A stretch of 64,000 nt of DNA from a virus (lineage: Duplodnaviria; Heunggongvirae; Uroviricota; Caudoviricetes): the IMG/VR virus record IMGVR_UViG_2851976983_000001, positions 1 through 64,000 of that record. One strand, 5' to 3'. This document shows positions 4,656 through 41,250 of this stretch, piece by piece. The notes beneath the pieces were generated by a model. The model was not told the DNA's origin, did no database searches, and worked only from the letters and a program-made list of their open reading frames with translations. Numbering within the stretch: the stretch's first letter is position 1; every line of letters starts with the position of its first letter. The position numbers were made by a program, and so were the translations under genes.

Positions 4656-5306
4656 ATGGCTAACATTATCATTTCTAAAAAGTCCATCATTGAAGCTGCA
4701 TCTATTGTATCCGACGAGCTGCGCGAAAAAGCAGATCTGGCAACTCAAACATATAACGAACATTATAAAAATGGTACGCACACTAAAGCAGACAAAGCAA
4801 ATATGCAAGCTGCGACCACTAAACTTGCTTACTTCATCAACAACGTTGTAAACGCTGTAGAAGACGAAAAATTATGCTCTGTTTTTTACTATGCGATTAA
4901 AGCAAGCAAACAAGCGCCAGAAGTATTTTTCCGTGATGCAATGACTAATAGTTATTCTCTGGAAAAACTGGTTTATCTGGTTAAATCAATTAAATCTGGT
5001 AAATGCGTTTATTCCATCGCTGATATGTCAGGATCTCGTGTATTCGCTTTAATCGATATGATTAACGACGAGATCGACACGTTCACCAATGGCGCTGTTT
5101 TCGATTTAATGAATGAAGCTAAAAAAGCGTGTGAAATTAAATTGGACGCTGGCTATACTCAAGCCAACCAGTTGATCAATCTTTGCGAACGTCTTGGACT
5201 TGTTGAAAAAGTCAAAGGAGCTGGGAGCGCGAAAGCTGGTACTCAGCAATATCGCTTCATTAAAAATGATTTCTACAATTATTTAGCTGATGCTTTCAAA
5301 GCGTAA
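4656..5306 (+). CDS. hypothetical protein in AT-rich island
   Basis: 216-aa ORF; AT-rich codon usage unlike neighbours; followed by hairpin AGCGCCCATTATGGGCGCT. Confidence 0.5.
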   Translation: MANIIISKKSIIEAASIVSDELREKADLATQTYNEHYKNGTHTKADKANMQAATTKLAYFINNVVNAVEDEKLCSVFYYAIKASKQAPEVFFRDAMTNSYSLEKLVYLVKSIKSGKCVYSIADMSGSRVFALIDMINDEIDTFTNGAVFDLMNEAKKACEIKLDAGYTQANQLINLCERLGLVEKVKGAGSAKAGTQQYRFIKNDFYNYLADAFKA

Positions 5307-5355
5307 TTAATGGAATCAAGCGCCCATTATGGGCGCTTTAAAGGAGCTTTAAAAA

Positions 5356-12036: not shown

Positions 12037-14070
12037 TTACTTAACCTGGTGGCCAGGTTTAGCACCGACATCCGGGCTTAACAGGAAGATATCTTTCCCG
12101 CCAGGGCCAGCAGCCATCACCATGCCTTCGGAGATACCGAAGCGCATTTTACGCGGAGCCAGGTTAGCCACCATAATGGTGTGACGACCAATCAGTGCCT
12201 GTGGGTCTGGATAAGCAGAACGAATGCCGGAGAAGACATTGCGTTTTTCACCGCCGAGATCCAGCGTCAGGCGTAGCAGTTTGTCAGAACCTTCAACAAA
12301 CTCTGCGTTTTCGATCAACGCCACGCGCAGGTCAACTTTGGCGAAGTCGTCAAAGGTGATGGTTTCCTGAATCGGGTCGTCAGCCAGTGGGCCAGTTACC
12401 GGTGCGGCTGTGGCTTTCACTTCTTCTTTGGATGCTTCCACCAGTGCTTCAACCTGCTTCATATCGATGCGGTTATACAGTGCCTTGAACGGATTCACTT
12501 TATGGCCCAGCAGCGGTTGCTGGATACCATCCCAGGTCAGTTCTGTATTCAGGAATGCTTCTGCACGTTCAGTCAGTTTCGGCAGTACCGGCTTCAGGTA
12601 CGTCATCAGCACGCGGAACAGGTTAATGCCCATAGAGCAAATCGCCTGCAGATCGGCATCGCGTCCTTCCTGCTTCGCCACCACCCACGGAGCCTGTTCA
12701 TCGACATAGCGGTTAGCCAGATCAGCCAGCGCCATGATTTCACGAATCGCTTTACCAAATTCGCGGCTTTCCCATGCTTCACCAATCACTTCAGCGGCAT
12801 CAGTAAAGGTTTTGTACAGTTGCGGGTCAGCCAGTTCGCCTGCCAGCACACCGTCAAAACGCTTATTGATAAAGCCCGCGTTACGGGACGCCAGATTCAC
12901 CACTTTGTTCACGATATCGGCATTCACGCGCTGAACGAAATCCTCCAGGTTGAGATCGATATCATCAATGCGCGAAGAGAGTTTCGCAGTGTAGTAGTAA
13001 CGCAGGCTGTCAGCGTCAAAATGATTCAGCCAGGTGCTGGCTTTAATAAAGGTGCCGCGAGACTTGGACATCTTCGCACCGTTCACCGTCACATAGCCGT
13101 GAACAAATAGGTTAGTCGGCTTGCGGAAGTTGCTGCCTTCCAGCATGGCAGGCCAGAACAGGCTGTGGAAGTAAACGATATCTTTACCGATGAAGTGATA
13201 CAGCTCGGCGGTGGAGTCTTTCTTCCAGTATTCATCGAAGCTGGTGGTATCGCCGCGCTTGTCGCACAGATTCTTGAAGGAACCCATGTAGCCAATCGGC
13301 GCGTCCAGCCAGACGTAGAAGTATTTGCCCGGTGCGTTCGGAATTTCAAAACCGAAGTAAGGTGCGTCACGGGAGATATCCCACTGTTGCAGGCCAGATT
13401 CAAACCACTCCTGCATTTTGTTTGCCACCTGCTCCTGCAACGCACCGCTGCGGGTCCATGCCTGCAACATTTCGCTGAAAGAAGGCAGATCAAAGAAGAA
13501 GTGTTCGGAATCACGCATTACCGGCGTAGCACCAGAAACTACCGATTTCGGCTCGATCAGTTCAGTCGGGCTGTAAGTCGCGCCGCAGACTTCACAGTTA
13601 TCGCCGTATTGATCTGGCGCTTTACATTTAGGGCAGGTGCCTTTTACAAAACGGTCCGGCAGGAACATGCCTTTTTCCGGGTCGTACAGCTGAGAGATAG
13701 TGCGGTTTTTAATAAAACCGTTCTCTTTCAGGCGAGTATAGATAAGCTCAGACAACTGACGGTTCTCTTCGCTGTGCGTCGAGTGATAGTTGTCATAGCT
13801 GATGTTAAAGCCTGCGAAATCAGTCTGGTGTTCCTGACTCATTTCGCCAATCATCTGCTCCGGTGTGATACCAAGCTGCTGTGCTTTCAGCATGATCGGC
13901 GTACCGTGGGCATCGTCGGCACAGATGAAATTAACCTCGTGGCCGCGCATTCGCTGGTAACGAACCCAGACATCAGCCTGGATGTGCTCCAGCATATGGC
14001 CGAGGTGGATTGAGCCGTTAGCGTACGGCAGCGCGCACGTCACCAGAATTTTCTTCGCGACTTGGGTCAT
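12037..14070 (-). CDS. metG: methionine--tRNA ligase (MetRS)
   Basis: Class I aaRS HIGH-type motif ([14 protein letters not shown]), KMSKS, zinc knuckle CPKC...CEVC, C-terminal tRNA-binding domain; near-identical over full length to enterobacterial MetG as I recall it; start set at MTQVAKK (14070), not the 720-aa track ORF. Confidence 0.95.
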
Positions 14071-14227
14071 AGTAGGCATTACTTCTTTGTAGTGAAAAGG
14101 GGCTTGATAGTAACAAAATGGCCTTATGTCTGCCATGTGATAACAGCATTTCTCATAAATGATTAAATGTCGTAGCTGGAGTACACTACAAGGCGACAAT
14201 TGCGCAAATTAAAATAAAGGAGACGGG

Positions 14228-15328
14228 ATGAGCGAGTCCAAATCGCCGGATGCCCTGAGAGCAATGGTAGCCGGTACGCTGGCTAATTTTCAGCACCCAA
14301 CCCTGAAACACAACCTGACTACGCTTAAAGCGTTACACCATGTTGCGTTGATGGATGACACACTGCATGTCGAACTAATCATGCCTTTCGTGTGGAATAA
14401 GCCTTTTGAAGACCTGAAAGAGCAATGTAGTGGTGATCTGCTCCGTATCACTGGCGCAAAGGCTATTGACTGGAAGCTGTCGTACAACATTGCCACGCTT
14501 AAGCGCGTCAAAAACCAACCAGGCATTAATGGCGTTAAGAACATTATCGCCGTCAGCTCAGGCAAAGGCGGCGTGGGTAAATCCTCCACGGCGGTAAACC
14601 TGGCACTGGCGTTGGCTGCTGAAGGTGCGAAAGTTGGTATTTTGGATGCCGATATCTATGGTCCATCAATTCCAACCATGCTGGGCGCGGAAAACCAACG
14701 TCCAACCTCACCTGACGGTACTCACATGGCACCTATCATGTCTCATGGCCTGGCAACCAACTCTATTGGTTATCTGGTCACCGACGACAATGCAATGGTG
14801 TGGCGTGGACCGATGGCCAGCAAGGCGCTGATGCAGATGTTGCAGGAAACTCTATGGCCTGATCTGGACTATCTCGTTCTCGATATGCCGCCGGGCACTG
14901 GTGATATTCAGTTGACGCTGGCGCAGAACATTCCTGTAACTGGTGCGGTTGTGGTAACTACGCCGCAAGACATCGCGCTGATCGATGCGAAGAAAGGCAT
15001 TGTGATGTTCGAAAAAGTCGAAGTGCCGGTACTGGGTATCGTCGAAAACATGAGTGTGCATATTTGCAGTAACTGCGGTCATCACGAGCCAATTTTTGGC
15101 ACCGGTGGCGCACAGAAACTGGCCGAGAAATACAACACGCAGTTGTTAGGCCAAATGCCACTTCATATCTCTCTTCGTGAAGATCTGGATAACGGAACAC
15201 CAACCGTTATTAGTCGTCCAGATAGCGAATTTACGGCTATTTATCGTGACCTCGCAGATCGCGTTGCTGCCCAAATGTATTGGCAAGGTGAAGTAATACC
15301 TGGCGAAATCGCATTCCGCGCAGTGTGA
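14228..15328 (+). CDS. apbC: Fe-S cluster carrier ATPase ApbC/Mrp
   Basis: P-loop SSGKGGVGKSS, CxxC pair (CSNCGHHEP); divergent from metG as in enterobacterial chromosomes. Confidence 0.9.
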   Translation: MSESKSPDALRAMVAGTLANFQHPTLKHNLTTLKALHHVALMDDTLHVELIMPFVWNKPFEDLKEQCSGDLLRITGAKAIDWKLSYNIATLKRVKNQPGINGVKNIIAVSSGKGGVGKSSTAVNLALALAAEGAKVGILDADIYGPSIPTMLGAENQRPTSPDGTHMAPIMSHGLATNSIGYLVTDDNAMVWRGPMASKALMQMLQETLWPDLDYLVLDMPPGTGDIQLTLAQNIPVTGAVVVTTPQDIALIDAKKGIVMFEKVEVPVLGIVENMSVHICSNCGHHEPIFGTGGAQKLAEKYNTQLLGQMPLHISLREDLDNGTPTVISRPDSEFTAIYRDLADRVAAQMYWQGEVIPGEIAFRAV

Positions 15329-15365
15329 TAAAAAGGCGGTGCATTGCACCGCCTAATCAGTTCTC

Positions 15366-15755
15366 CTACATCACGGGACAATCATCAAACTCGCCACTTC
15401 TTGCGTCGTTGATAATGTGAGTGATCACACCAAACACGGCATTGCTGCCCGTGCATCCATCGTCATCCTTTGGCAATGCTTCCTTCTTACCGGTTCTTAA
15501 ATCCTCCAGATGCTGACGTGGATACTTCCGGTATCTTTTTACGCGATATTCCCCATCCAGAGCGCATACAAGCAGAGAACCATCAACCGGGGTAAGTGAG
15601 GAATCGACCACCAGCAATGCACCCTGTAATATTCCCTCACGATGATGACTATCAGCTGCCCTCATGAAGTAGGTCGCTGAAGGATGTCTAATTATCTGCT
15701 GATCAAGAGAAATACGGCTCTCAGCATAATCCGCCGCAGGAGAAGGGAAGCCCAT
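15366..15755 (-). CDS. UmuD'-like S24 peptidase (HumD-like)
   Basis: GFPSPAADY, Ser in DS motif and Lys in RVKRY align with the UmuD catalytic dyad; no N-terminal cleavage arm, so UmuD'-like; LexA box 17 bp upstream. Confidence 0.75.
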   Translation of the reverse strand: MGFPSPAADYAESRISLDQQIIRHPSATYFMRAADSHHREGILQGALLVVDSSLTPVDGSLLVCALDGEYRVKRYRKYPRQHLEDLRTGKKEALPKDDDGCTGSNAVFGVITHIINDARSGEFDDCPVM

Positions 15756-15771
15756 AATACTCGCCTCTTAA

Positions 15772-15791
15772 TACTGTATATGCATACAGTA
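15772..15791. promoter_or_regulatory. LexA (SOS) box
   Basis: TACTGTATATGCATACAGTA matches CTGT-N8-ACAG consensus. Confidence 0.75.
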
Positions 15792-16417
15792 TATGTTGAA
15801 GCTATATATTTTTGAACTCTATCTCTTAAAAAAGATGTTAATAAGATGCTAACTATTGAAAGGCATAAATATATACAATTCCAACAAACGTTATTTTTAA
15901 CAAATTTTTTCTCTCCGTTGACTTTTGCGAAAGCCTTGTCTGGCCTAAATTGCGCGGAAGCTACTTTTTCCTTACAGAGTTATCCACAGAGTTATGCACT
16001 TGCATGTATAACCTATACACACTATCTTAATTCGCAAGACACTGATGTTGCGGTATTGAAGGTTCATTGGGTTAAAAATAGACATTAAAAAGCCCAGTTG
16101 ACTAGGCTGGGCTTTTTAAAAGGAAACAGAGTTTGCGGCTCTGTTCCTGAGCCATAAGTATCTGGCGACTGAATTAAGATTAACCGAATGTACTGGATTC
16201 ATCAAGAAACGTTGAGTGGTCATACCAGGTAATAATGGCCATTTACTAAACATCGTTGTTCTCAAAGAAGATTTAAGTCCAGGTTTTTGGTGACTCTAAA
16301 ACCTTACCTTAACTCGAAATCGTGCCGTAAGTATCTGGCGACTACAGATATTGCAACTGCAAAGGCAAGCCCAAAGGTATTTGCAGCTAGGCGCGATAAA
16401 ACTAAGTGAGGCCTGTT

Positions 16418-30728: not shown

Positions 30729-31559
30729 TTATTTCACTGTAATGAAAGGAGTGTTAGCCCCTTGAGTCATGTACTGCGGTAACTGGCCATTCCATTTATT
30801 GATGGCTTCCAGTTCCATAACGTTCGGGTTTTGACGCAGAGCTTCACCGCGCAGACGAATGGCGTCTGCTTCTGCTTGCGCACGAGCACGGATAGCATCA
30901 GCTTCACCATTAGCCTGTTCACGTAGCATATTCGCCTCAGCTTTACGCTGTTCAACTTCCTGCTGACGTTGCAGAGTACGCTGGTTAGCCGTTACTTTGG
31001 CGTTAATAGATTCAATGACGGTTTTTGGGTAATCAGGCTTTCCAACCCATGACAGGCTCAGTACCTCAATACCAACCGGAGACATCTCTTTCTGAATATC
31101 TTTCAGTGCGTTGTCCAGCAATTGTGCCTTACCACCGTCGATAAATGAGTCAGTGGTCATACGGCTGGCCAAACGGTTTAGAGAGTCGGCAATTTTCTGA
31201 CGCAGATCTGATTCGGTGATATCGTCTACGCCTTTGCGATAGGTCTGGAACACCGTCGTTACCTTGTCACGATTAACCAGATACGCAACGCCAATTTTGT
31301 GACCAATAGCAGTACCGTCACTCATCTGGAATGTGAACGGTTCGTCGTAGGTCTTCATTTGTTTGAAGGTCGGGAATACGTAAAGTTCGGTGTTAAGACC
31401 TGTCCATTGGCGACCAACGCCAACCACTTCACCAATCCCTTTGTCTTCACCTAATTTGTTTACTTTGATGCCAACGTATCCAGGCTCCACGCGATCACAG
31501 CCAGTAAGACCCATTGTGCAAATAGCCGCCAGAGCAACTGCAAGTAAACCTTTCTTCAT
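30729..31559 (-). CDS. lipoprotein, possibly SPFH/band-7-like
   Basis: Signal peptide with lipobox LTGC; central domain then Ala/Gln/Arg/Glu-rich coiled coil as in HflK/C-type proteins; family call tentative. Confidence 0.45.
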   Translation of the reverse strand: MKKGLLAVALAAICTMGLTGCDRVEPGYVGIKVNKLGEDKGIGEVVGVGRQWTGLNTELYVFPTFKQMKTYDEPFTFQMSDGTAIGHKIGVAYLVNRDKVTTVFQTYRKGVDDITESDLRQKIADSLNRLASRMTTDSFIDGGKAQLLDNALKDIQKEMSPVGIEVLSLSWVGKPDYPKTVIESINAKVTANQRTLQRQQEVEQRKAEANMLREQANGEADAIRARAQAEADAIRLRGEALRQNPNVMELEAINKWNGQLPQYMTQGANTPFITVK

Positions 31560-31855: not shown

Positions 31856-32929
31856 TTACTCTTCTACTGACTCGGTGGGATTGTCTTTTGATCTCCGGTC
31901 GTCGATTGCCTGTAAAGCCGCAATGATTTCAGCTAGTGGCTTCTCCCGATACATCTCGACGATCTGTGATTTGGTGTATTTCTTGTCACCAATTTCTACT
32001 CGACCGCTGGCGTTCTTTGGCAGGTATCCTTCTTCCAGCATGTACTCGACGAGCGACTCGATAACGTCGAGGCCACGAGTAGGATCGAAGTAGAATTTCC
32101 AGGTGCATTTGCCATACGGTGGTGCAACTTTGTTTTTGATGCACTCTGCGCCTACGTCCTGACCGATCTTCTCTTTCCCATCCTTCATCACCGATGCACC
32201 GAGACGGATGCGCACAGAAGCGTAAAACTTCGGTGAATCGCCGCCTGGAGACGTAGTAGGGTCGCCAAACATTACACCGATTTTTGTGCGAACCTGATTC
32301 AAGAAGATGATGCAGGCGTTGTATTTGCGTGCCCACAAAGCCAGAGTAGGGAAGTTCGCACTCGTCGCACGAGCCAGTGCCGTATTGTCGTTCATGTTTA
32401 GCTGATCTTTGTCTTTGGCTGTGCCTTCAGCCATCTTTTCGAACTTCTCGGCTTTGGAGTTCGGAACCATAGACGCAAGAGAGTCAGCCACGATACAGAT
32501 AGGTGCTGATTCGGGGATAAGCTCTTCATCACGAACCAATTTAAGTATTGTGCCGATCAACTCTACAGAGTCTTCGAAGGTATCTGGCTGCTTGTATACC
32601 CACTGACCGTCATCCTCATCTGCGTTCAGGCCATTGGCTACAGCCAGGCCAACGTCAAAACTGTTTTCATGATCGAGGAATACCGCCAGACCATCTTGTT
32701 TTTGAGCGGAGATCATCGCTGCTGTTGCAAGGAACGTTTTCCCCGCGCTTGGTGGCCCGAATACTTCTACGATACGACCACATGGGAAACCGCCATCGTA
32801 ACGACCGGAAATAGCTTTGTTTAACGGAGGAAAGCCTGTGTCAATCCAATGAGTTACTTTCTGAATTTCGTCGTTGCTACCGATTTTCTTTTTCAGAGCA
32901 AGTGCCAGTGCGGATTTTCCTTTTGCCAT
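31856..32929 (-). CDS. RecA/UvsX-like recombinase
   Basis: Walker A GPPSAGKT, RecA-fold core, Walker B-like CIVAD. Confidence 0.8.
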   Translation of the reverse strand: MAKGKSALALALKKKIGSNDEIQKVTHWIDTGFPPLNKAISGRYDGGFPCGRIVEVFGPPSAGKTFLATAAMISAQKQDGLAVFLDHENSFDVGLAVANGLNADEDDGQWVYKQPDTFEDSVELIGTILKLVRDEELIPESAPICIVADSLASMVPNSKAEKFEKMAEGTAKDKDQLNMNDNTALARATSANFPTLALWARKYNACIIFLNQVRTKIGVMFGDPTTSPGGDSPKFYASVRIRLGASVMKDGKEKIGQDVGAECIKNKVAPPYGKCTWKFYFDPTRGLDVIESLVEYMLEEGYLPKNASGRVEIGDKKYTKSQIVEMYREKPLAEIIAALQAIDDRRSKDNPTESVEE

Positions 32930-32931
32930 GA

Positions 32932-33204
32932 TCAGGCTCCTTTTGTTTCGTTGATTCGTTTTAAAGCGGCGGATTCGTCGAATACAATCGCATCGTGATT
33001 AAGGAGTCTGGATACACGAGCGAGGATTTTTACGACCTGCTCGCTGACTAATCCAAACTCGCGATCTGTCGCTTTCATTCCGGCAGCGCCTAGAATTGAC
33101 GGCAGTGCGATGACAGCGTACTCACCGTGATAAAAGACAATCTCTTTTGCCAGTTGGGTGGGGGTGGTTGTAGCGCCATTAATAATCGATTTAAGCATTA
33201 GCAA
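32932..33204 (-). CDS. hypothetical protein (90 aa)
   Basis: ORF between recombinase and exonuclease genes. Confidence 0.4.
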   Translation of the reverse strand: MLMLKSIINGATTTPTQLAKEIVFYHGEYAVIALPSILGAAGMKATDREFGLVSEQVVKILARVSRLLNHDAIVFDESAALKRINETKGA

Positions 33205-34193
33205 TACCTTTCGAATGGAAGAACAAACACTTCAAGGTCTTCAAGGAACGAACGGAAATTCAGCTCGTAGCACAGTTGCTCGAATGCTTTCACGTCACGA
33301 TTGCCTTTGATTGTTTCGATTTCGGTAGGCGGAAACTTCGTCTCAATCAGGTTCATTAGCGTGATGTTTCTCTTGAACGCTTCGAGCATTCGACAGCCTG
33401 TTTTCTCGTTGAAGGCATTCTTCGCTAGTTTGTTGAAGGCGGTCTTATGGCGTCCTTTGTCAACCACGATTGAGCCGTCGTTGATGCCGCGTACCATCGT
33501 TGCGACACTTCCCCATTCATGCAGAAGCTCTTTCGCACCGCCAGCACCAATGCCACCAACACCGCTAATGTTGTCCGATTTATCGCCTTGTAATGCTTTT
33601 GCTTCCAAAAATGCGCGAGGCGTGGCGAATCCTGTCAGCTCCGCAAATTGCTCAAAATTAACCTGCTTGTTTTTGGCGTCTTCACGCAGGCTTACCCAGC
33701 TTACGTTTTCACGAACTAACTGAAGCCAGTCGCTATCGCCTGTTAACAGATAGATGTGTTCAACGGTTGGCTGCGGTGCCATGCGGGATACCAGCAGCCC
33801 GGCCAGATCATCCGCTTCTGCATCTTTTGCAATGAGTTGGGTAACTCCAAGCGCGGTCATCATTTTGAGGATGTATGGCTTCTGGATAGCAAAGCCTTCC
33901 TTCATCTTTTTCATATCAGGATCGTCGTCGCGATTTGCTTTGTAGTCCGGGTAAAAGTCGCGACGCTTGTCACTAAATCCATCCCAAAGAATCATAGGTC
34001 GGGCATGGAGGATGGAGGCATAACGACGGACGTTCTTAACAAAGCCGAAAGCAGCCTGTACTTCCATTTCGCCGTTGTGCAATTTGTCAGATTGTTGGTG
34101 GTAATAACCCAGGCTATTGCCATCTACGAAGAGATAATTCACCGGTACATTCCTTCCAAAAAGTAAGGCGTCCGTAGACGCCTTACTGGTCAC
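33198..34193 (-). CDS. 5'-3' exonuclease / flap endonuclease (T4 RNase H / T5 D15 type)
   Basis: Motifs FVDGNSL, KANRD, AEADD, LLTGDSD, GDKSDNISGVGGIG. Confidence 0.8.
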   Translation of the reverse strand: MTSKASTDALLFGRNVPVNYLFVDGNSLGYYHQQSDKLHNGEMEVQAAFGFVKNVRRYASILHARPMILWDGFSDKRRDFYPDYKANRDDDPDMKKMKEGFAIQKPYILKMMTALGVTQLIAKDAEADDLAGLLVSRMAPQPTVEHIYLLTGDSDWLQLVRENVSWVSLREDAKNKQVNFEQFAELTGFATPRAFLEAKALQGDKSDNISGVGGIGAGGAKELLHEWGSVATMVRGINDGSIVVDKGRHKTAFNKLAKNAFNEKTGCRMLEAFKRNITLMNLIETKFPPTEIETIKGNRDVKAFEQLCYELNFRSFLEDLEVFVLPFERYC

Positions 34194-34202
34194 GTAATGG
34201 GA

Positions 34203-35231
34203 TTACAGAGAGTCCAGCTCTCTCAGTAGGTCATCCAGACCTTCATCTTCCGTCGCAGATGCGGTTGCTACAGATGTCGCTGCGACTGCTTCAGACTCTT
34301 TGACTGATACGGCAACGGCAGCGGAACTTGCCTCTGGTTTAAATTCAGTTTCAACGGCACGGAGGATTTCTTCATCAACCAGACTGGTTGGTTCAGAAGC
34401 CGGTGTGTGCGCGGTTGCTACAGCCGTCGCTCCTTCTGTATGACCAGTGACAGAGCCAAATCCAGGTAGTGCCGCAGCCGATGTTTTCGCGGTTGAGGAA
34501 ATTGCTGGTGCAGATGCTGCGGCAGTTGGTGCAGCGATGCCAATCAGACGACCCATAGTGCGAACTGTCGACAGAAGACGAGTTTCATCAGCCTGATTTG
34601 CGTATGCGATCAGATCATGCTGGGTGTTCCAGAATTTATCTTCGATATCGCCTTTGTAGACTTTACGCTTAGGCGAGACGTCATATTTGGTATCGCGACC
34701 AGAGCCAGTACGTTTAATCAGGAATGCGTAGCCTTCCTCTTTGCTCAGTGGATTGCCGATATCATCAGCGATGTCTTCGGTGATTGCTTTGCAGATATCA
34801 TCGAATACAGTAGACGGCAGCTCGATTAACTGGCATTTCTCAGCATCTGCGAAATCCTCACGAGCAGAAAGAATGCCGTTGACCAGGTAGCGAGGAGTGG
34901 CACGCATTTGACCGATGCGTTCTTCCATTGCTTTGTTACCCTTGTGACGAGCGCGACCTTCCATCACCATTTCGCATAGCTGACAAGCGCGACCGTGAGT
35001 ATGTTGCTCACAAATATAAGCGTTGGTTGCTTCTTTACCTTCCTCATTCTGATACTTAACGTAGTGCATACCGAAAGTCTGGAAGAACTTACCGTTTGGG
35101 TCGTCTTTATTCGGGAAGATGCGGATATAGTTGACGCCGTCTTTTAAGCGAGTCAGATCAACGTTGTTACCACGTTTGGCGGCAATGTCTTCACGAGTTT
35201 TGTTAAGCAAATCAAGTAATGTCTTAGACAT
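34203..35231 (-). CDS. single-stranded DNA-binding protein, gp32-like
   Basis: His/Cys zinc subdomain (CEQHTHGRACQLC), Ala/Ser-rich linker, acidic C-terminal tail DEGLDDLLRELDSL; start preceded by AGGAGAAACAC-ATG. Confidence 0.6.
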   Translation of the reverse strand: MSKTLLDLLNKTREDIAAKRGNNVDLTRLKDGVNYIRIFPNKDDPNGKFFQTFGMHYVKYQNEEGKEATNAYICEQHTHGRACQLCEMVMEGRARHKGNKAMEERIGQMRATPRYLVNGILSAREDFADAEKCQLIELPSTVFDDICKAITEDIADDIGNPLSKEEGYAFLIKRTGSGRDTKYDVSPKRKVYKGDIEDKFWNTQHDLIAYANQADETRLLSTVRTMGRLIGIAAPTAAASAPAISSTAKTSAAALPGFGSVTGHTEGATAVATAHTPASEPTSLVDEEILRAVETEFKPEASSAAVAVSVKESEAVAATSVATASATEDEGLDDLLRELDSL

Positions 35232-35348: not shown

Positions 35349-35780
35349 TCAACGGGGAGTAATAAAGCGTTCAGAGCCTAATCGCTCTAATTCAACGATG
35401 GCCATCTTTGACGCCTGAACGATCATGTCTCGGCGATGCGAAAAGGCGGCGACAGCATGTTTGTATATGTCTGCGATGTGCCGTGCTTCATCCAACTTCT
35501 GCCGTTTAGACAGATACTGTGGGTTTGTTTTAACCTTAGCGTCCAGTACAGACTCGTTGAACTTAATGCCGTTCATACTCAAATTCTTACGCTCTGTGTC
35601 GTATAGCTTTGCTTCAACAGCTTCAAGGTTAAGTTTTGCCTCTGCGACATCTCGATCTGCCTGCGCTAGTTTTGACCCATACTCCATTAAAAGCCGTGGC
35701 TGTTTACGCCATACTTCCTCAAGGTTGTCGCGGTCGAACTCCAGATCGGCCATGATTTTAGAAAAAATATCAGTGTTCAC
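35349..35780 (-). CDS. hypothetical coiled-coil protein (143 aa)
   Basis: ORF; position next to the SSB gene suggests a recombination accessory role, not shown. Confidence 0.4.
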   Translation of the reverse strand: MNTDIFSKIMADLEFDRDNLEEVWRKQPRLLMEYGSKLAQADRDVAEAKLNLEAVEAKLYDTERKNLSMNGIKFNESVLDAKVKTNPQYLSKRQKLDEARHIADIYKHAVAAFSHRRDMIVQASKMAIVELERLGSERFITPR

Positions 35781-36034
35781 TCTAATAGGTTCCTACTTAT
35801 AAAATCTGTATCAATTATATCAAACAGAGAACGGGTTTATGGCGTCATGTCAACTTTGTTCAGGGGAAAATATTGAGATCACCGAAGATAATTAGTTGTC
35901 TTATTTTGGTAAGCTGTGCTGACCATCTTTAGGTCACATACATGAGATGGATGGGGGTGTGGCATGAACGGATGAAATTCAGTCGCCGTTGACAGATGTC
36001 AACACTGTGAATAGAATACTATTATCGGAGGCGA

Positions 36035-36259
36035 ATGAAGCAACATCCGAATAAGCATATTCAAGCAGCCATTGACTATGCATTAAGTAAAGGCTGGATC
36101 TGGGTAGCTGCTGGTGGTGCTGCACATTGTTTTTGCAGACTGCGATGCGGTAATCCAGAAGGTGAACACAAAACTCACCAAATGAGCGTATGGTCGACTC
36201 CGGGTAATCCCGAAAACCATGCCAAACAGATCAAACGAATGGTTGATCGTTGTAAATGA
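36035..36259 (+). CDS. small Cys/His-containing protein (74 aa)
   Basis: ORF with GGAGG RBS; first gene of a two-gene plus-strand cassette. Confidence 0.45.
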   Translation: MKQHPNKHIQAAIDYALSKGWIWVAAGGAAHCFCRLRCGNPEGEHKTHQMSVWSTPGNPENHAKQIKRMVDRCK

Positions 36260-36319
36260 TTTCAAGGCGGCATTAGCCGCCTTTTGCAGAAACTGTCCAA
36301 CTATCTTCAAAGGAAAACT

Positions 36320-36883
36320 ATGGCGCTTTATAACTTCACTCTGACGCTCTCAGGCGTATCGTATGAGACGGAAGGACTGGAAGACGCGCTGTACCAAAAC
36401 GGCTGTGACGATGCGCTAATTTGCGCATATGGAAACTCCGTCTATGTAGAATTTGACCGCGAAGCACAATCACTTGATGCAGCTATCGCATCTGCGGTCG
36501 ACAATATTGAATCAGCCGGTATCGGTGCAATTGTTGAATCCGTCGACTCGGCTCTTGTGGGCTTAAGCGATATCGCGGAACTGACAGACCTGTCTCGCCA
36601 GGCAGTGGCGTTGCTCAAAGACGGTAAGCGCGGAAGCGGCGACTTCCCTTGCCCTGTACAACGCATAAAAGGCCAGTCTCCTCTCTGGGATTGGGCTGAT
36701 GTGGCTGAATGGCTCATGAATAACGGACGACTTAAAGAGGGCGATCAAATTGTCCAAAATGCCCGAACTTTGAGTAAATGGAATCTGGCGCTTCGAAACA
36801 GCGTCTCGAAAGATTTCAACGAAATAGAGCAAATTGCGGAGAAACTGATTAAACGCCGCAAAGATATTGCGAAATGCGCATAA
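36320..36883 (+). CDS. putative HTH DNA-binding protein (about 187 aa)
   Basis: Track ORF 36284..36883; start MALYNF preferred; HTH-like GLSDIAELTDLSRQAVALL. Confidence 0.45.
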   Translation: MALYNFTLTLSGVSYETEGLEDALYQNGCDDALICAYGNSVYVEFDREAQSLDAAIASAVDNIESAGIGAIVESVDSALVGLSDIAELTDLSRQAVALLKDGKRGSGDFPCPVQRIKGQSPLWDWADVAEWLMNNGRLKEGDQIVQNARTLSKWNLALRNSVSKDFNEIEQIAEKLIKRRKDIAKCA

Positions 36884-37212
36884 TGATGCCCGCCAATTGG
36901 CGGGCATCTGTTCTCTGTAAAGGTGTCTGGCATCGTCTGGTTCGTTAACGTTTACTAAACCAATGGTGACAAAAATTAGTTATCTTTGAAAAATAAAGGT
37001 TGCATGAAAAGAAGGGGTATGCGTTAATAGCATCGTTGGTTTGCAAGACAGACCTTATGTAAGCAGTTTTAGTAAAGCAGTCTCAGTTCAGTGTTATCTT
37101 CTGATTTCCCTTCTTCGTGAGTCTCCTCCTTAAGTGCCTAAGTAAGTCCCAATCTATACAGATCAAATTCTCGCCGCACTATGTGGCTCACAAAATTAAG
37201 AAGGTAATATCT

Positions 37213-37428
37213 ATGTCTAATAAAATGACTGGTTTAGTAAAATGGTTTAACTCTGATAAAGGCTTTGGCTTTATTTCTCCTGCTGATGGCAGTAAAGATG
37301 TTTTTGTACATTTTTCGGCAATTCAGAGTAATAATTTCCGCACTTTGGAAGAAGGCCAGCAGGTCGAATTCTCTATCGAGAATGGGGCTAAAGGCCCAGC
37401 AGCAGCAAATGTCGTTGCTCTAAGCTGA
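37213..37428 (+). CDS. cold-shock protein, CspA family
   Basis: [38 protein letters not shown] carries RNP1/RNP2 motifs; long 5' leader as in csp genes; track ORF from 37117 is over-extended. Confidence 0.9.
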
Positions 37429-37703
37429 TTCAACGCTGATGATCCTCATTTCTACAATAACGAAGACGGTGTAAGCCTGAGTGGATAGATTTGTAGGATT
37501 GTACAAGTTGAATAAATTAGCATGGTAAGGCCATGCTAATTAAATCGACACAACGGCCAGTTTATTCCATAAAAGTGAATTGCCCATTGTGGCGAAATGC
37601 GGGGTTGCCGCATGAATAGTCAAAGGCAGAAGCTAACTGCCGGCATGGCAAAACAAAGTGCGTAAGAGGAGTGACTTCCTCAACAAGCGCCATAATTCTT
37701 TAT

Positions 37704-37733
37704 AAACCCGCCAACAGGCGGGTTTTCTTTATT
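37704..37733. terminator. bidirectional rho-independent terminator
   Basis: Hairpin AAACCCGCCAACAGGCGGGTTT with T-run; between convergent csp and dnaE-like genes. Confidence 0.6.
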
Positions 37734-40700
37734 ACTTATTTATTGTCTCCGCGATATCAGCCAGAATGGCCTCCAGTCGCTCTCCTTCTTCCGGTCGGAA
37801 GTACAGGATATTCGGGTTAAATCCGTAGAAGACGGTTGCATCAAGCTCTGGGAAGTACTCCTTACGACCAATCAGATCTGATGGTTTACTCTTATTGTTA
37901 AATAGTGCGGTTGAACGACTACCACACGTCAAAATGTAGGTTGGTCGTACAAGATTAATTTCTTCCCGCATAAAGTCTGTGAACTGGCCTATCTCGTCTT
38001 TGGTATAGTCTTTCTCTTTGTCCTTAACCTTCTTACAAACACCCGTGACATAAAGATCGCCCATGCGCAGATCTCCAACTGTCAGTAGTTTTGCCTTAAA
38101 GTCGTCGTATCCGTTCTCCATGAAGTAGCCGGTACGAGCGTCATTGCCGTTCGCATTGTCCAGAATGATCATGATTTTGGGTTTAATACCAATAGTCGGG
38201 CGTATCAACTCCTCACCCAAGCCCATTTCAGCCGCCATACGTGTCATGAGTACGTTGATTTCGGCAGAACGCTTAGGATTCATTTCGAACGGACGTGATG
38301 CTTTAACAGCGTCAATGATGAGATTGCCCATCAGTTCAGCCTGGTCGCGCAGTCGTTCAGGATCAGTTGCTGGCAGACTGCCTGGCTCAATTGACGCAAA
38401 AGCCCCTACTTTATGAAGCGACTCGCGTACACGACTGTTACATGCACGCTTCTCGACCGCTTCATCGAATTGTGCCACTGACTCGAATTTGCCACCAACT
38501 TTCTCACGCGCACGCATAATTGCCTGACAACCATTTTCAGAACAGCCTTTCACAGCAGAGAATGGCGCATACAGTGCCTGACTGCCGTCTTCGAGTGTGC
38601 GGATCTCAATTCGGTTAGATGACACATTAACGTCTGGTGGCAATACGCGAATGCCATAGGTCAGCGCATCCTTCACCAGCCCCTGATGCTTATCCTCGCC
38701 CAGAATGGTGAGCGCAGCTGCGAAGAACTCAGCAGGGTAGTGCGTCTTTAGCCACATAGACTGATAACTGATTAAAGAATAAGCAACGGAGTGTGATTTA
38801 TTGAACTGATAGGCTCCGTTTTTCTCAAATGCAGTCCATATCTCTTTTGCCTTCGTCTCAGACAGACCTGGATGTGACGTTGTAACGCGCACAACTGGCA
38901 TTGGCAGCTTCACTCCATGCTCCAACGCCTCTTCAACTGTCCTCAGAGTACCGTCCTCGCATTTAAAATGTTCTGCGCGATGAATCCGTTGTATTGCGCC
39001 ATTTTCAAGCTCTACGTCGATCCACCCAGCTTGAGCCTGAATGACAAATTTCTCACCCATGCTCCTCATCTTTTCCATGTTCTTCTTACCGATTGCTGAA
39101 CGCACACCATCCGCCTCGGCCATTGTGAAACCAGCAAGAAGCCTTGTTGCGTTCATCGTTTGTTCCTGATAGAGAATCACTCCATTTGTTTCAGAGGTCA
39201 GTTCATCCAAGACAGGATGTAGTGATGTAGGCGTCATAAATCCTTTCGCAACGGAAACATAGTCATCCAACATGCCGGATTGAATCGGTCCCGGTCGGAA
39301 GAGGGCGGTAGTTGCGACAACGGTTTTGAAACTCATTGGCTCGATGCCACCGCCCAGATCTTTAAGCAGCTTACGCATGGGGCCGGACTCCAGCTGGAAT
39401 ACGCCCTGCGTGTACCCTGCAGCGAACCCATCCAGAACCTTGCGATCGTCCAGTGGGATAGCGTCGAGATTGATGTCTTCACCGGTACTCTCTTTGATGT
39501 AGCGTTTCGCGCTATCCAGAAGATCGAGTGTTGCCAGACCGAGAACGTCCAACTTAATCAGCCCCATCGCCTCGCAGTAACGTTTATCGAACGCAATACA
39601 TCGAGCATTGCCACGCAGCTCGACGGGCGTGCGCTCTACTAATGGAACGCCAGCGACGATCATCCCCGCAGCGTGACGACCAAAACCACGCATCAGGCTT
39701 TGCAGCTTACACGCCGCTTTGAACGCTTCCGGGTTTTTCGTGGCGTATTTGTCCAGGCTGGCCAGTTGCTCGCGCAGCTCTTCCAGAGACAGGCTGTCGT
39801 CCTCCATATTCTTGAACTCTTTGGATACCGCCATATCCGCAGCATCGACACCGTAAATACGTGCAGTGTCACGCAGCGCAGATGCCGCGCCCAGATAGGT
39901 GAAGTTCGGAATGCCTGCAACGTAATCTTCGCCGTAGCGTTCATTCAGATACTCGATCACCTCATGGCGACGTGCCTGGCTGAAGTCCAAGTCCGCATCC
40001 GGCAAGTCGAGACGCTCAGGGTTGATGAAACGCTCAAACAGAAGACCGTGACGGATTGGGTCGACGTTGGTTATGCCTATGCACCACGCCACCAGAGAAC
40101 CGGCAGAGGAACCACGACCAGGCCCGACAGGAATGCCAGTTTCACGGCTGTGATTCATCAGATCGCGTACCATCAGGAAGTAACCACAGAATCCCAGGCG
40201 AGTCAGCGTGTCCATTTCGTACTTTAGCCGCTCAACATAAACCCTGTTCTCAGAAGCAGGTGGTGTGTATCCAAACTCTTTTGTGGTAAGACGTTTACGC
40301 AGCCCTGCAACAGCCAGTTTCATCAGCGTTGCAGGTTCGTCGTCTGCCATCTTGGGCAGTGCTGGTGGCAATTCATGCCAGCGCCATGTGCAGGCATCGA
40401 TAATGGAGTCCTGCGTTGTTGAGGCCATTGCAGCTGTTACCGGCACATCCATGCGAACGGAGAAGGCTTTAAGCGCCTCAAGGAGATGGCGACGACCATT
40501 GATGGCGTTATCTCGCTGGTGGGGGATACGCAGACGATGCGGCTGGTCGATTTTTATGTTGTTCGTAACCATGTGCGCAATGTCTTTAATGTCTGCATCG
40601 TCGATCGATTCGTAATAAGCGGGATAGAACGCCACTGGCTCTATTTTCAATGCGCTGGCGACTTTCATCGCCCGGACGTTAATCTGGTCGTAGAATGGGG

Positions 40701-41250
40701 TAGGGTGCGGATAAACCACACTATAGAAGTTGTCTTTTCCACCCGCTGTAATCAGTGTGCTTATGATTTTTGCAAAATCGTTGCGTTGGAACACGCTACC
40801 GATGTCGGAAGTAAGCAGGATGATGTTACCTTTGGCATATGTAGAAACCAACTGTTCGAGCGAGAGACGCGGTACAAAGTAGAACTGTTCTCGTGTGTTG
40901 GCCGCCGTCATTAGTTCGCAGATGTCGCGATATCCTTTCTCATTTTTAATTAGAGCGGTAAACGAGTAGTTACGTCCTCGCTCCAATGATTCCATACATC
41001 CCTTAGACTCTTTAGCAAGTTTAGCCCGGTGCTCGTATGTGGGATCATCAACGATGTTTAGTTTCACACCACAAATAACCGCCATGTCGTCACCAGCGGC
41101 ACGTTGTAGTGGAATAACGCTCGCAATATTCATGCTATCTGCTGAAATTACAGCGGTGTAGCCAGCTTCTCTGGCAATCTTCACCGCGTTTTCTGCTTTT
41201 AAAGCCGACTCCCCAAGTGAGAAGTCAGTTCGAACCATCAGTGCCTTCAT
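37732..41250 (-). CDS. DNA polymerase III alpha subunit-like (DnaE family)
   Basis: 1172 aa; N-terminal PHP-like region; GPGRGSSAGSLVAWCIGITNVDPIRHGLLFERFINPER matches the conserved DnaE core; start preceded by GGTAAAAACAC-ATG. Confidence 0.9.
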   Translation of the reverse strand: MKALMVRTDFSLGESALKAENAVKIAREAGYTAVISADSMNIASVIPLQRAAGDDMAVICGVKLNIVDDPTYEHRAKLAKESKGCMESLERGRNYSFTALIKNEKGYRDICELMTAANTREQFYFVPRLSLEQLVSTYAKGNIILLTSDIGSVFQRNDFAKIISTLITAGGKDNFYSVVYPHPTPFYDQINVRAMKVASALKIEPVAFYPAYYESIDDADIKDIAHMVTNNIKIDQPHRLRIPHQRDNAINGRRHLLEALKAFSVRMDVPVTAAMASTTQDSIIDACTWRWHELPPALPKMADDEPATLMKLAVAGLRKRLTTKEFGYTPPASENRVYVERLKYEMDTLTRLGFCGYFLMVRDLMNHSRETGIPVGPGRGSSAGSLVAWCIGITNVDPIRHGLLFERFINPERLDLPDADLDFSQARRHEVIEYLNERYGEDYVAGIPNFTYLGAASALRDTARIYGVDAADMAVSKEFKNMEDDSLSLEELREQLASLDKYATKNPEAFKAACKLQSLMRGFGRHAAGMIVAGVPLVERTPVELRGNARCIAFDKRYCEAMGLIKLDVLGLATLDLLDSAKRYIKESTGEDINLDAIPLDDRKVLDGFAAGYTQGVFQLESGPMRKLLKDLGGGIEPMSFKTVVATTALFRPGPIQSGMLDDYVSVAKGFMTPTSLHPVLDELTSETNGVILYQEQTMNATRLLAGFTMAEADGVRSAIGKKNMEKMRSMGEKFVIQAQAGWIDVELENGAIQRIHRAEHFKCEDGTLRTVEEALEHGVKLPMPVVRVTTSHPGLSETKAKEIWTAFEKNGAYQFNKSHSVAYSLISYQSMWLKTHYPAEFFAAALTILGEDKHQGLVKDALTYGIRVLPPDVNVSSNRIEIRTLEDGSQALYAPFSAVKGCSENGCQAIMRAREKVGGKFESVAQFDEAVEKRACNSRVRESLHKVGAFASIEPGSLPATDPERLRDQAELMGNLIIDAVKASRPFEMNPKRSAEINVLMTRMAAEMGLGEELIRPTIGIKPKIMIILDNANGNDARTGYFMENGYDDFKAKLLTVGDLRMGDLYVTGVCKKVKDKEKDYTKDEIGQFTDFMREEINLVRPTYILTCGSRSTALFNNKSKPSDLIGRKEYFPELDATVFYGFNPNILYFRPEEGERLEAILADIAETINK

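Follow-up and report, generated by a model that had tools for sequence, protein, structure and literature searches.

A conserved two-gene cassette of SSU5-type phage-plasmids is a candidate toxin-antitoxin-like module

We analyzed a two-gene cassette in a stretch of 64,000 nucleotides (nt) of viral DNA (the window; positions 1 to 64,000 of the IMG/VR record IMGVR_UViG_2851976983_000001, Caudoviricetes). A preliminary description of this DNA had noticed two co-directional plus-strand genes between the minus-strand recombination genes and a csp gene, and both genes are present there. The first open reading frame (ORF1, 36035-36259, plus strand, from the ORF list) encodes a protein of 74 amino acids (aa) which, as had been noticed, contains cysteines and histidines (4 and 6, respectively). 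The second (ORF2, 36320-36883, plus strand) encodes 187 aa from its ATG, and the segment that had looked like a helix-turn-helix (HTH) is a winged HTH in the predicted structure. The spacing of the genes has to be corrected. Because more than 30 relatives of ORF2 share the N-terminus MALYNFTL, we place its start at the ATG at 36320, so that the intergenic gap is 60 bp. The 24 bp given previously fits a start at the TTG at 36284 (an ORF of 199 aa), which is not supported by the relatives. Both genes have Shine-Dalgarno sequences that can be read on the plus strand: GGAGG at 36027-36031 for ORF1, where CGGAGGCnAATG is kept in many Enterobacterales relatives, and AGGA at 36311-36314 for ORF2.

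Over the 1.8 kb that surround the cassette, identity is 99.8% with Escherichia phage Cyrano (OV696614) and 100% with several E. coli plasmids of about 111 kb, and the DNA of the window belongs to an SSU5-type E. coli phage-plasmid. Cyrano corresponds to pLF82, the SSU5-like phage-plasmid carried by the adherent-invasive E. coli strain LF82 (PMC9928086). The window comes from a close relative of Cyrano and not from the identical element, because the RecA genes differ: RecA of the window (31856-32929, minus strand) has 357 aa, whereas the Cyrano record has a RecA coding sequence (CDS) of 2340 bp. The cassette is also found in SSU5 itself, at the same syntenic position in Enterobacter phage-plasmids, and in 310 plasmids of PLSDB (about 100-115 kb, including the pMT1-type plasmids of Yersinia pestis), whose carriers include E. 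coli, Enterobacter, Y. pestis, Citrobacter, and Klebsiella. Other settings are a P2-like prophage of Histophilus, where the cassette adjoins a Phd/YoeB pair, an integrative conjugative element in Yersiniaceae, and the chromosome of Providencia, where the neighbors have no mobile-element signature.

The two genes travel together. A profile search with ORF1 over 1.84 billion representatives gave 724 clusters (at 50% identity) that extend from Enterobacterales to Planctomycetota, and our comparison covered 80 loci in species-representative genomes and 57 in IMG/VR viral contigs (numbered with the prefix L below). A relative of ORF2 lies directly downstream of ORF1 and on the same strand in 79 of the 80 genome loci and in all 57 viral loci. 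The pair is thus kept in the same order in 136 of 137 loci from several phyla, frequently with a 4-nt overlap, and this pairing is far beyond chance. Small, adjacent, co-transcribed genes whose pairing is kept across lineages and mobile elements are what is generally expected of a type II toxin-antitoxin (TA) system. In one Pirellulales metagenome-assembled genome (L073, 934-2451), the pair is present as two tandem copies on one contig.

The partner proteins are modular. The predicted structure of ORF2 (pLDDT 87.9) has three parts: a ferredoxin-like domain with the order beta-alpha-beta-beta-alpha-beta (residues 1-75; 36320-36544, plus strand), which is the putative neutralizing domain; a winged HTH at about residues 78-134 (36551-36721, plus strand), of the AlpA/excisionase/MerR-like type according to the predicted structure and a weak profile likeness; and a C-terminal hairpin of two predicted helices (143-162 and 166-186; residues 143-186, 36746-36877, plus strand). 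Relatives have all three parts (the long class, about 185 aa, from Enterobacterales), the N-domain and winged HTH (the mid class, about 148 aa, from Pasteurellaceae, Neisseria, and Acinetobacter/Moraxellaceae), or the N-domain only (the short class, about 83 aa, from Planctomycetota, Latescibacterota, Anaerolineae, Nitrospinota, Cardiobacteriaceae, and one Alcaligenaceae contig). Because the short class consists of the N-domain alone, the ferredoxin-like N-domain is the obligatory partner of ORF1 and DNA binding an add-on. Only relatives of the long class reach past position 170 of the ORF2 profile, and the helical hairpin of these Enterobacterales-type partners is possibly a dimerization element, to judge from the structural model. 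Conserved residues of the N-domain include F6, D22, G28, C29, D31, F45, R47, A55, and A59, of which D22, C29, D31, and R47 form a polar cluster that is near-invariant across phyla. In distant loci, ORF1 is the better conserved of the two: relative to the window proteins, the median identity in the short class is 49% for ORF1 vs. 34% for the partner N-domain, and in the mid class 58% vs. 42%. A match of CagE_TrbE_VirB to the N-domain (14 of 32 relatives, best E 0.0016) was below the cut-off and we judged it to be spurious.

Upstream of ORF1 is a sigma-70-type promoter (35989-36017, plus strand) with a −35 element of TTGACA (35989-35994), a 17-nt spacer, and a −10 element of TAGAAT (36012-36017). 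It agrees with the consensus at 11 of 12 positions and outscores all other sites in the scanned region, and relatives repeat the −35 together with a TAnAAT-like −10 at equal distance. The −35 is overlapped by a perfect 16-bp palindrome, GTTGACAGATGTCAAC (35988-36003), which is a putative operator site for the winged HTH of ORF2. Among the relatives we found the motif GTT[G/T]AC-N4-GT[C/A]AAC at 43-57 nt upstream of the ORF1 start, again overlapping the TTGACA of the −35. Its presence follows the architecture of the partner. In the genome loci, 34 of 35 long, 9 of 15 mid, and 0 of 29 short partners (without the HTH) have the motif upstream, and several of the operator-negative loci hold versions with one mismatch; in the viral loci, the counts are 39 of 46, 8 of 10, and 0 of 1. 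Overall, the palindrome is present in 90 of the 106 loci whose partner has a DNA-binding domain vs. 0 of the 30 whose partner lacks one. It is also highly specific in position, as 43 of 43 matches in the 895 kb of genome-locus sequence fall at this upstream site. In the 64-kb window, a search for other copies of GTTGACN4GTCAAC with up to one mismatch returned none; GTTGACAGATGTCAAC is the sole match, so there is no sign of a wider regulon. We read this pattern as a strong phylogenetic footprint of an operon that is repressed by its own product, through the winged HTH of ORF2, and because the operator strictly co-occurs with the HTH, ORF2 itself probably binds the palindrome. In a pMT1-type copy from Y. 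pestis (L021), the operator is degenerate in its right half (GTTGACACGCGCTCAC) and both genes are intact, and related viral contigs of the pMT1 type (L130-L135 and L137) have no match to the operator motif. To judge from these copies, autoregulation may be relaxed or altered in the pMT1-type lineage.

Between the two genes is a GC-rich hairpin, AAGGCGGC-ATTA-GCCGCCTT, followed by Ts (36264-36287, plus strand), with a perfect 8-bp inverted repeat. It folds at −16.4 kcal/mol (z = −3.2). Hairpins with differing stems lie at the equivalent place in about two thirds of the long loci with a spacer of at least 46 nt, and the hairpin is absent where the genes abut or overlap. It is possibly a partial terminator or a stabilizer of the mRNA. 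A second hairpin, which resembles an intrinsic terminator (10 bp in the stem, 8 of them GC, a loop of 4 nt, and then TGTTCTCTGT), closes the operon at 36885-36908 on the plus strand. The Cyrano lysogen is reported to transcribe both genes: ORF1 (CYRAN_51) is at 30 times and ORF2 (CYRAN_50) at 14 times the local prophage background (PMC9928086). These levels would be compatible with partial termination at the intercistronic hairpin.

ORF1 has cysteines at positions 32, 34, 38, and 73 and histidines at 4, 8, 31, 45, 48, and 62. Its predicted structure (pLDDT 87.9) runs alpha1-beta1-beta2-(short helix)-beta3-alpha2. In an alignment of 32 close relatives (A1), the invariant positions are H4, N6, K7, I9, A12, A16, W21, H31, L36, C38, S51, W53, T55, P56, E60, H62, and C73, and the conserved motifs are HPNK and SxWSTP-x3-ENH. 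His31, which lies just ahead of beta2, is invariant among the close relatives and conserved to at least 90% in the family at large. C38, H/C48, and C73 form a cluster that may hold zinc or a disulfide, and these residues are the putative metal ligands. In an Enterobacter clade (L117-L125 and L002-L005), ORF1 has no ATG and its frame starts with TTG or CTG behind GGAG, a sign that the putative toxin may be translated from a weak start.

The preliminary description had matched neither protein to a known family. This holds for Pfam and NCBIfam, where nothing scored above threshold for either protein, but not for PHROGs or PADLOC. In PHROGs, ORF1 belongs to phrog_5923 (3e-49), a family without an assigned function, and ORF2 to phrog_2620 (2e-105), which is described as "excisionase and transcriptional regulator." In PADLOC, ORF1 matches six PDC-M06A models (best 1.2e-19) and ORF2 matches PDC-M06B (1.3e-32, over residues 3-161). 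PDC systems are computational defense candidates of which copies are embedded in known defense systems ("guilt-by-embedding"; Payne et al., 2024, bioRxiv 10.1101/2024.01.29.577857), and PDC-M06 is cassette CAS_00046 with 497 RefSeq occurrences. As PDC-M06 consists of adjacent genes that match PDC-M06A and PDC-M06B, and as both window proteins match these profile sets in the same gene order, we take the pair and PDC-M06 to be the same family. In contrast to the embedded copies, the cassette of the window lies between replication and recombination genes of a phage-plasmid and not inside a defense system. A full-text search of the literature found no description of the function, mechanism, or structure of PDC-M06.

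Other searches with these proteins gave little. Foldseek with the ORF1 model against the PDB gave no significant match (and no HicA), and searches of PDB sequences by phmmer and hmmsearch, from single sequences as well as from profiles, yielded only matches at chance level (such as RuBisCO small subunit, lectins, and dihydrouridine synthase). RuBisCO_small matched 14 of 90 ORF1 relatives (best E 1.2e-4) under its gathering score, which we attribute to chance or to an analogous topology; a homolog at NCBI is named "ribulose bisphosphate carboxylase small subunit," probably because of this weak match. Homology to a non-TA family, which the preliminary description had named as grounds for giving up its idea, was not found in these searches.

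On balance, we favor the view, with moderate confidence, that the cassette is an autoregulated type II TA-like module of the PDC-M06 family and a lysogeny-expressed cargo of an SSU5-type phage-plasmid. The near-consensus sigma-70 promoter would give rise to a bicistronic ORF1-ORF2 transcript (the promoter is observed in the sequence, and transcription has been published). The winged HTH of ORF2, probably as a dimer, would bind the palindrome over the −35 and repress the operon, as the footprint and its co-occurrence with the HTH suggest. The ferredoxin-like N-terminal domain of ORF2 would bind and neutralize ORF1, which is consistent with the near-universal adjacency of the genes, including those whose partner is only an N-domain. 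Free ORF1 would arrest growth. Its likeliest activity might be a HicA-like cleavage of RNA, but this is the weakest step, as it is drawn from a resemblance in predicted fold only, and we have less confidence in this detail than in the module as a whole. The pay-off could be retention of the plasmid-prophage by post-segregational killing, abortive-infection defense against other phages, or both.

The assignment of the toxin role to ORF1 draws on gene decay. ORF1 alone is broken in 6 loci, by a nonsense codon at W53 in L025, by frameshifts in L062 and L065, and by stop codons in L085, L050, and L143; the one locus with a break confined to ORF2 is L118. If breaks fell in proportion to gene length, then at least 6 of 7 on ORF1 would be expected with P of about 0.006; however, the counts are small, metagenome-assembled genomes contribute some of them, and the loci lack phylogenetic independence. 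With this reservation, the asymmetry points to ORF1 as the harmful partner.

Besides the small counts, four observations weigh against our proposal. First, in L118 (IMG/VR 3300013741_000046, 5225-5310), an 80-nt deletion takes the ribosome-binding site of ORF2, its start codon, and its first 16 codons, and the promoter and ORF1 are identical to those of intact relatives. This is either a counter-example to the rule that a toxin is never left alone or an assembly artifact. Second, some SSU5-type plasmids are without ORF1 and the 5' end of ORF2, with no apparent consequence, which shows only that the cassette is dispensable. For example, E. coli plasmid pTB212 (L092, NZ_CP033252.1, 2330-3000) has, in the syntenic location, a deletion of the promoter, of ORF1, and of about 21 codons at the start of ORF2, and the remnant of ORF2 is annotated as a 186-aa "DNA-binding protein"; in several plasmids of E. 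coli from pigs and chickens, E. fergusonii, and Klebsiella, too, only the ORF2 portion of the query finds a match. We considered whether such a remnant is an orphan antitoxin, but because the deletion reaches into ORF2 and removes those first codons, it is a decayed cassette. Third, the intercistronic hairpin and the 30-fold and 14-fold levels imply that the message of ORF1 is at least as abundant as that of ORF2, which one would not expect of a potent toxin, barring compensation by translation or protein stability. Fourth, the link of ORF1 to the fold of HicA is marginal.

A first alternative is that the genes are a non-toxic regulatory pair, in which ORF2 is an AlpA/excisionase-like transcription factor of the mobile element and ORF1 is a small modulator (a co-repressor or an anti-repressor). 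We consider this unlikely, but it has more in its favor than the alternatives that follow. The SSU5 copy of ORF2 is annotated as an AlpA-like regulator, and PHROGs and NCBI records name ORF2 as such a regulator or as an excisionase; the carriers are prophages, integrative conjugative elements, and phage-plasmids, which is where such regulators act; and ferredoxin-like domains often serve regulators such as Lrp/AsnC as sensors of a ligand or a partner. Also, L118 tolerates ORF1 without a translatable ORF2, and the ORF1 message is no less abundant than that of ORF2. The central domain of ORF2 does resemble the winged-HTH proteins of the AlpA/excisionase group (PF05930; phrog_2620 and phrog_66), but the resemblance is at the level of fold and PHROG and the matches are under the family thresholds. 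In particular, we rejected membership in Phage_AlpA (PF05930), for which the lowest E in 32 relatives was 0.025 (8 of 32 reached it), short of the threshold, and the solved AlpA structure 8c3t matches ORF2 with E 0.71. Furthermore, unlike those proteins, ORF2 has a ferredoxin-like domain before the winged HTH and a helical hairpin after it, it is invariably paired with ORF1, and the only site predicted for it in the window lies at its own promoter. The absence of other sites from the 64-kb window, and the location of all 43 genome-locus matches at this same promoter, are not what we would expect of a regulator of other genes. Similarly, 30 loci keep the pair even though the partner has no DNA-binding domain, so the core function is something other than DNA binding. 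Finally, the invariant polar residues of ORF1 are enzyme-like, and pseudogenization that is biased towards ORF1 would be unexpected of a harmless co-factor.

A second alternative, and an improbable one, is that this is a bona fide HicA/HicB system, with ORF1 as a divergent HicA mRNA interferase and ORF2 as the HicB antitoxin. This is how the genes are named in public: the Cyrano record (OV696614) labels CYRAN_51 as "HicA toxin protein" and CYRAN_50 as "putative antitoxin HicB," and the names are used in PMC9928086 as well. The architecture is indeed similar. As in hicAB, the small gene that would encode the toxin comes first and its partner second; the predicted order of ORF1 is alpha-beta-beta-beta-alpha with an invariant His (His31) just before beta2; and hicAB, too, occurs on phages, plasmids, and defense islands. 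The partner has an N-terminal toxin-facing domain with an optional C-terminal DNA-binding domain, which is reminiscent of the HicB classes that have or lack such a DNA-binding domain (compare classes 1 and 3 of Gerdes, 2024, PMC10865869), and the putative palindromic operator in the promoter would be a functional analog of the one described for HicB.

Comparison of the sequences, however, gives no significant similarity to HicA or HicB, whether by sequence or by profile. Pfam HicA_toxin (PF07927) does not match ORF1 at E ≤ 10 or any of 90 diverse relatives at E ≤ 1, whereas E. coli HicA, our positive control, matches it at 3e-7. When we aligned the ORF1 family to the E. coli HicA family with hhalign, the only match was out of register (18-24 columns, 77-80% probability); the in-register alignment, which pairs ORF1 His31 with HicA His23, had a non-significant probability of 0.2%. 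(The out-of-register match sets a helix cap in ORF1 residues 1-24, "HPNKxIxxAI," against residues 35-58 of E. coli HicA, "RHPxxEIxxxLRKAI," which are part of its beta3-alpha2. The beta3-alpha2 segment of ORF1 itself, "STPxNPENHAKQI," repeats the helix-cap theme.) ORF1 also has a 10-residue insertion between beta2 and beta3, and its conserved Cys/His cluster and motifs are not present in HicA; together with the negative Foldseek search, this leaves a likeness to HicA that appears to be one of topology only, as far as the predicted structure tells. As for ORF2, its hhalign probability against E. coli HicB is 0.16% and there is no match to HicB_lk_antitox (PF15919). Its modeled N-domain (beta-alpha-beta-beta-alpha-beta) is ferredoxin-like and differs from the partial RNase H fold of HicB (beta-beta-beta-alpha-beta), and its DNA-binding domain would be an AlpA/excisionase-type winged HTH and not an Xre-HTH or a ribbon-helix-helix. 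ORF2 is not a HicB, and membership of the pair in the HicAB family is not supported. The idea of the preliminary description, a type II TA pair with a HicAB-like layout, is partly supported: the gene order, the pairing, the modular partner, the putative operator, the higher conservation of ORF1, the decay, the mobile carriers, and the reported expression in the lysogen fit it, and the specific assignment to the HicA and HicB families fails.

Third, the roles could be altered, with the ferredoxin-like domain of ORF2 as the enzyme (a Cas2/VapD-like nuclease or a modifier of ORF1 like the type VII antitoxins) or with ORF1 as a sensor or inhibitor, in a phage-triggered defense system and not a classical addiction module: ferredoxin-like folds include nucleases that are used in conflict systems, the D22, C29, D31, and R47 cluster is near-invariant across phyla, and PADLOC lists the family as a defense candidate with copies embedded in known defense systems, but we give this little credence because strand beta1 of ORF2 (residues 2-11) has no conserved Asp, which is where the catalytic Asp of Cas2 sits, because a toxin domain that is fused to an autorepressor HTH would be unusual, and because the asymmetry of decay suggests that ORF1 is the harmful one.

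More speculatively, we can extend the TA-like module that we favor to the family as a whole. PDC-M06 might be an uncharacterized TA/defense superfamily that is not HicAB by descent and has arrived at a convergent architecture. Its effector would be an alpha-beta-beta-beta-alpha protein stapled by Cys/His residues, would possibly bind zinc, and would have catalytic motifs of its own (HPNK, His31, and SxWSTP-x3-ENH); its antitoxin domain would be a new ferredoxin-like one whose D/C/D/R cluster might act enzymatically; and the SSU5/pHCM2/pMT1 phage-plasmids would use it for maintenance or for phage exclusion. We offer this extended reading tentatively and consider it possible but doubtful.

A parallel is Phd-Doc, the persistent gene pair of P1-like phage-plasmids (PMC7969092). 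Both are two-gene modules of a phage that is maintained as a plasmid, and by analogy the role to be expected of the cassette would be retention of the plasmid-prophage. On the other hand, the two pairs of proteins have no relationship, and the antitoxin comes first in phd-doc, which is the reverse order. The papers on SSU5 phage-plasmids mention TA systems only generically.

The neighborhood of the cassette in the window is as follows. On the upstream side, and all on the minus strand, are RecA (at the coordinates given above), a 5'-3' exonuclease (33198-34193), a gp32-like single-stranded-DNA-binding protein (34203-35231), and a gene of 143 aa that is named UvsY in the Cyrano record (35349-35780). 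These recombination genes are adjoined by a gene for an SPFH/Band 7 (stomatin-like) membrane protein (30729-31559, minus strand; Pfam Band_7, 2.6e-30). In Enterobacter relatives, RecA contains an intein (Intein_splicing and LAGLIDADG; we compared L001, 891-3230, and L002, 4548-6890). On the downstream side is a cspA-type thermoregulator 5' untranslated region (37035-37453, plus strand; Rfam RF01766, 185.7 bits, E 9e-51) ahead of a cold-shock-domain gene of 71 aa (37213-37428, plus strand; Pfam CSD, 1.4e-33), and the Cyrano record OV696614 has no CDS annotated at the position of this gene. It is followed by the DNA polymerase III alpha subunit (37732-41250, minus strand), which is one intact ORF of 1172 aa in the window. 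In Enterobacter phage-plasmids (L002-L005, at about 12053-16305), an HNH/NUMOD4 homing-endonuclease gene splits the polymerase into two ORFs.

The existence of the cassette and the suspicion that it is a TA system are already known, from the public HicAB annotation and from the PDC-M06 catalog. What we add is that the HicAB label fails its tests, that the partner is ferredoxin-like with modular DNA-binding additions, that there is a precisely defined and conserved putative operator, that ORF1 has a Cys/His motif set, that the phyletic range is wide, and that decay is asymmetric in a way that suggests ORF1 as the harmful partner. As the public "HicA/HicB" label is unsupported at the family level, caution is needed in transferring the biochemistry of HicAB to these genes. 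PDC-M06 gains three predictions: which gene is the effector, which domain neutralizes it, and the exact sequence of the operator. For the SSU5/pHCM2/pMT1 group of phage-plasmids, of which the cassette is a cargo, an addiction or abortive-infection module would help to explain the persistence of these elements of about 100 kb.

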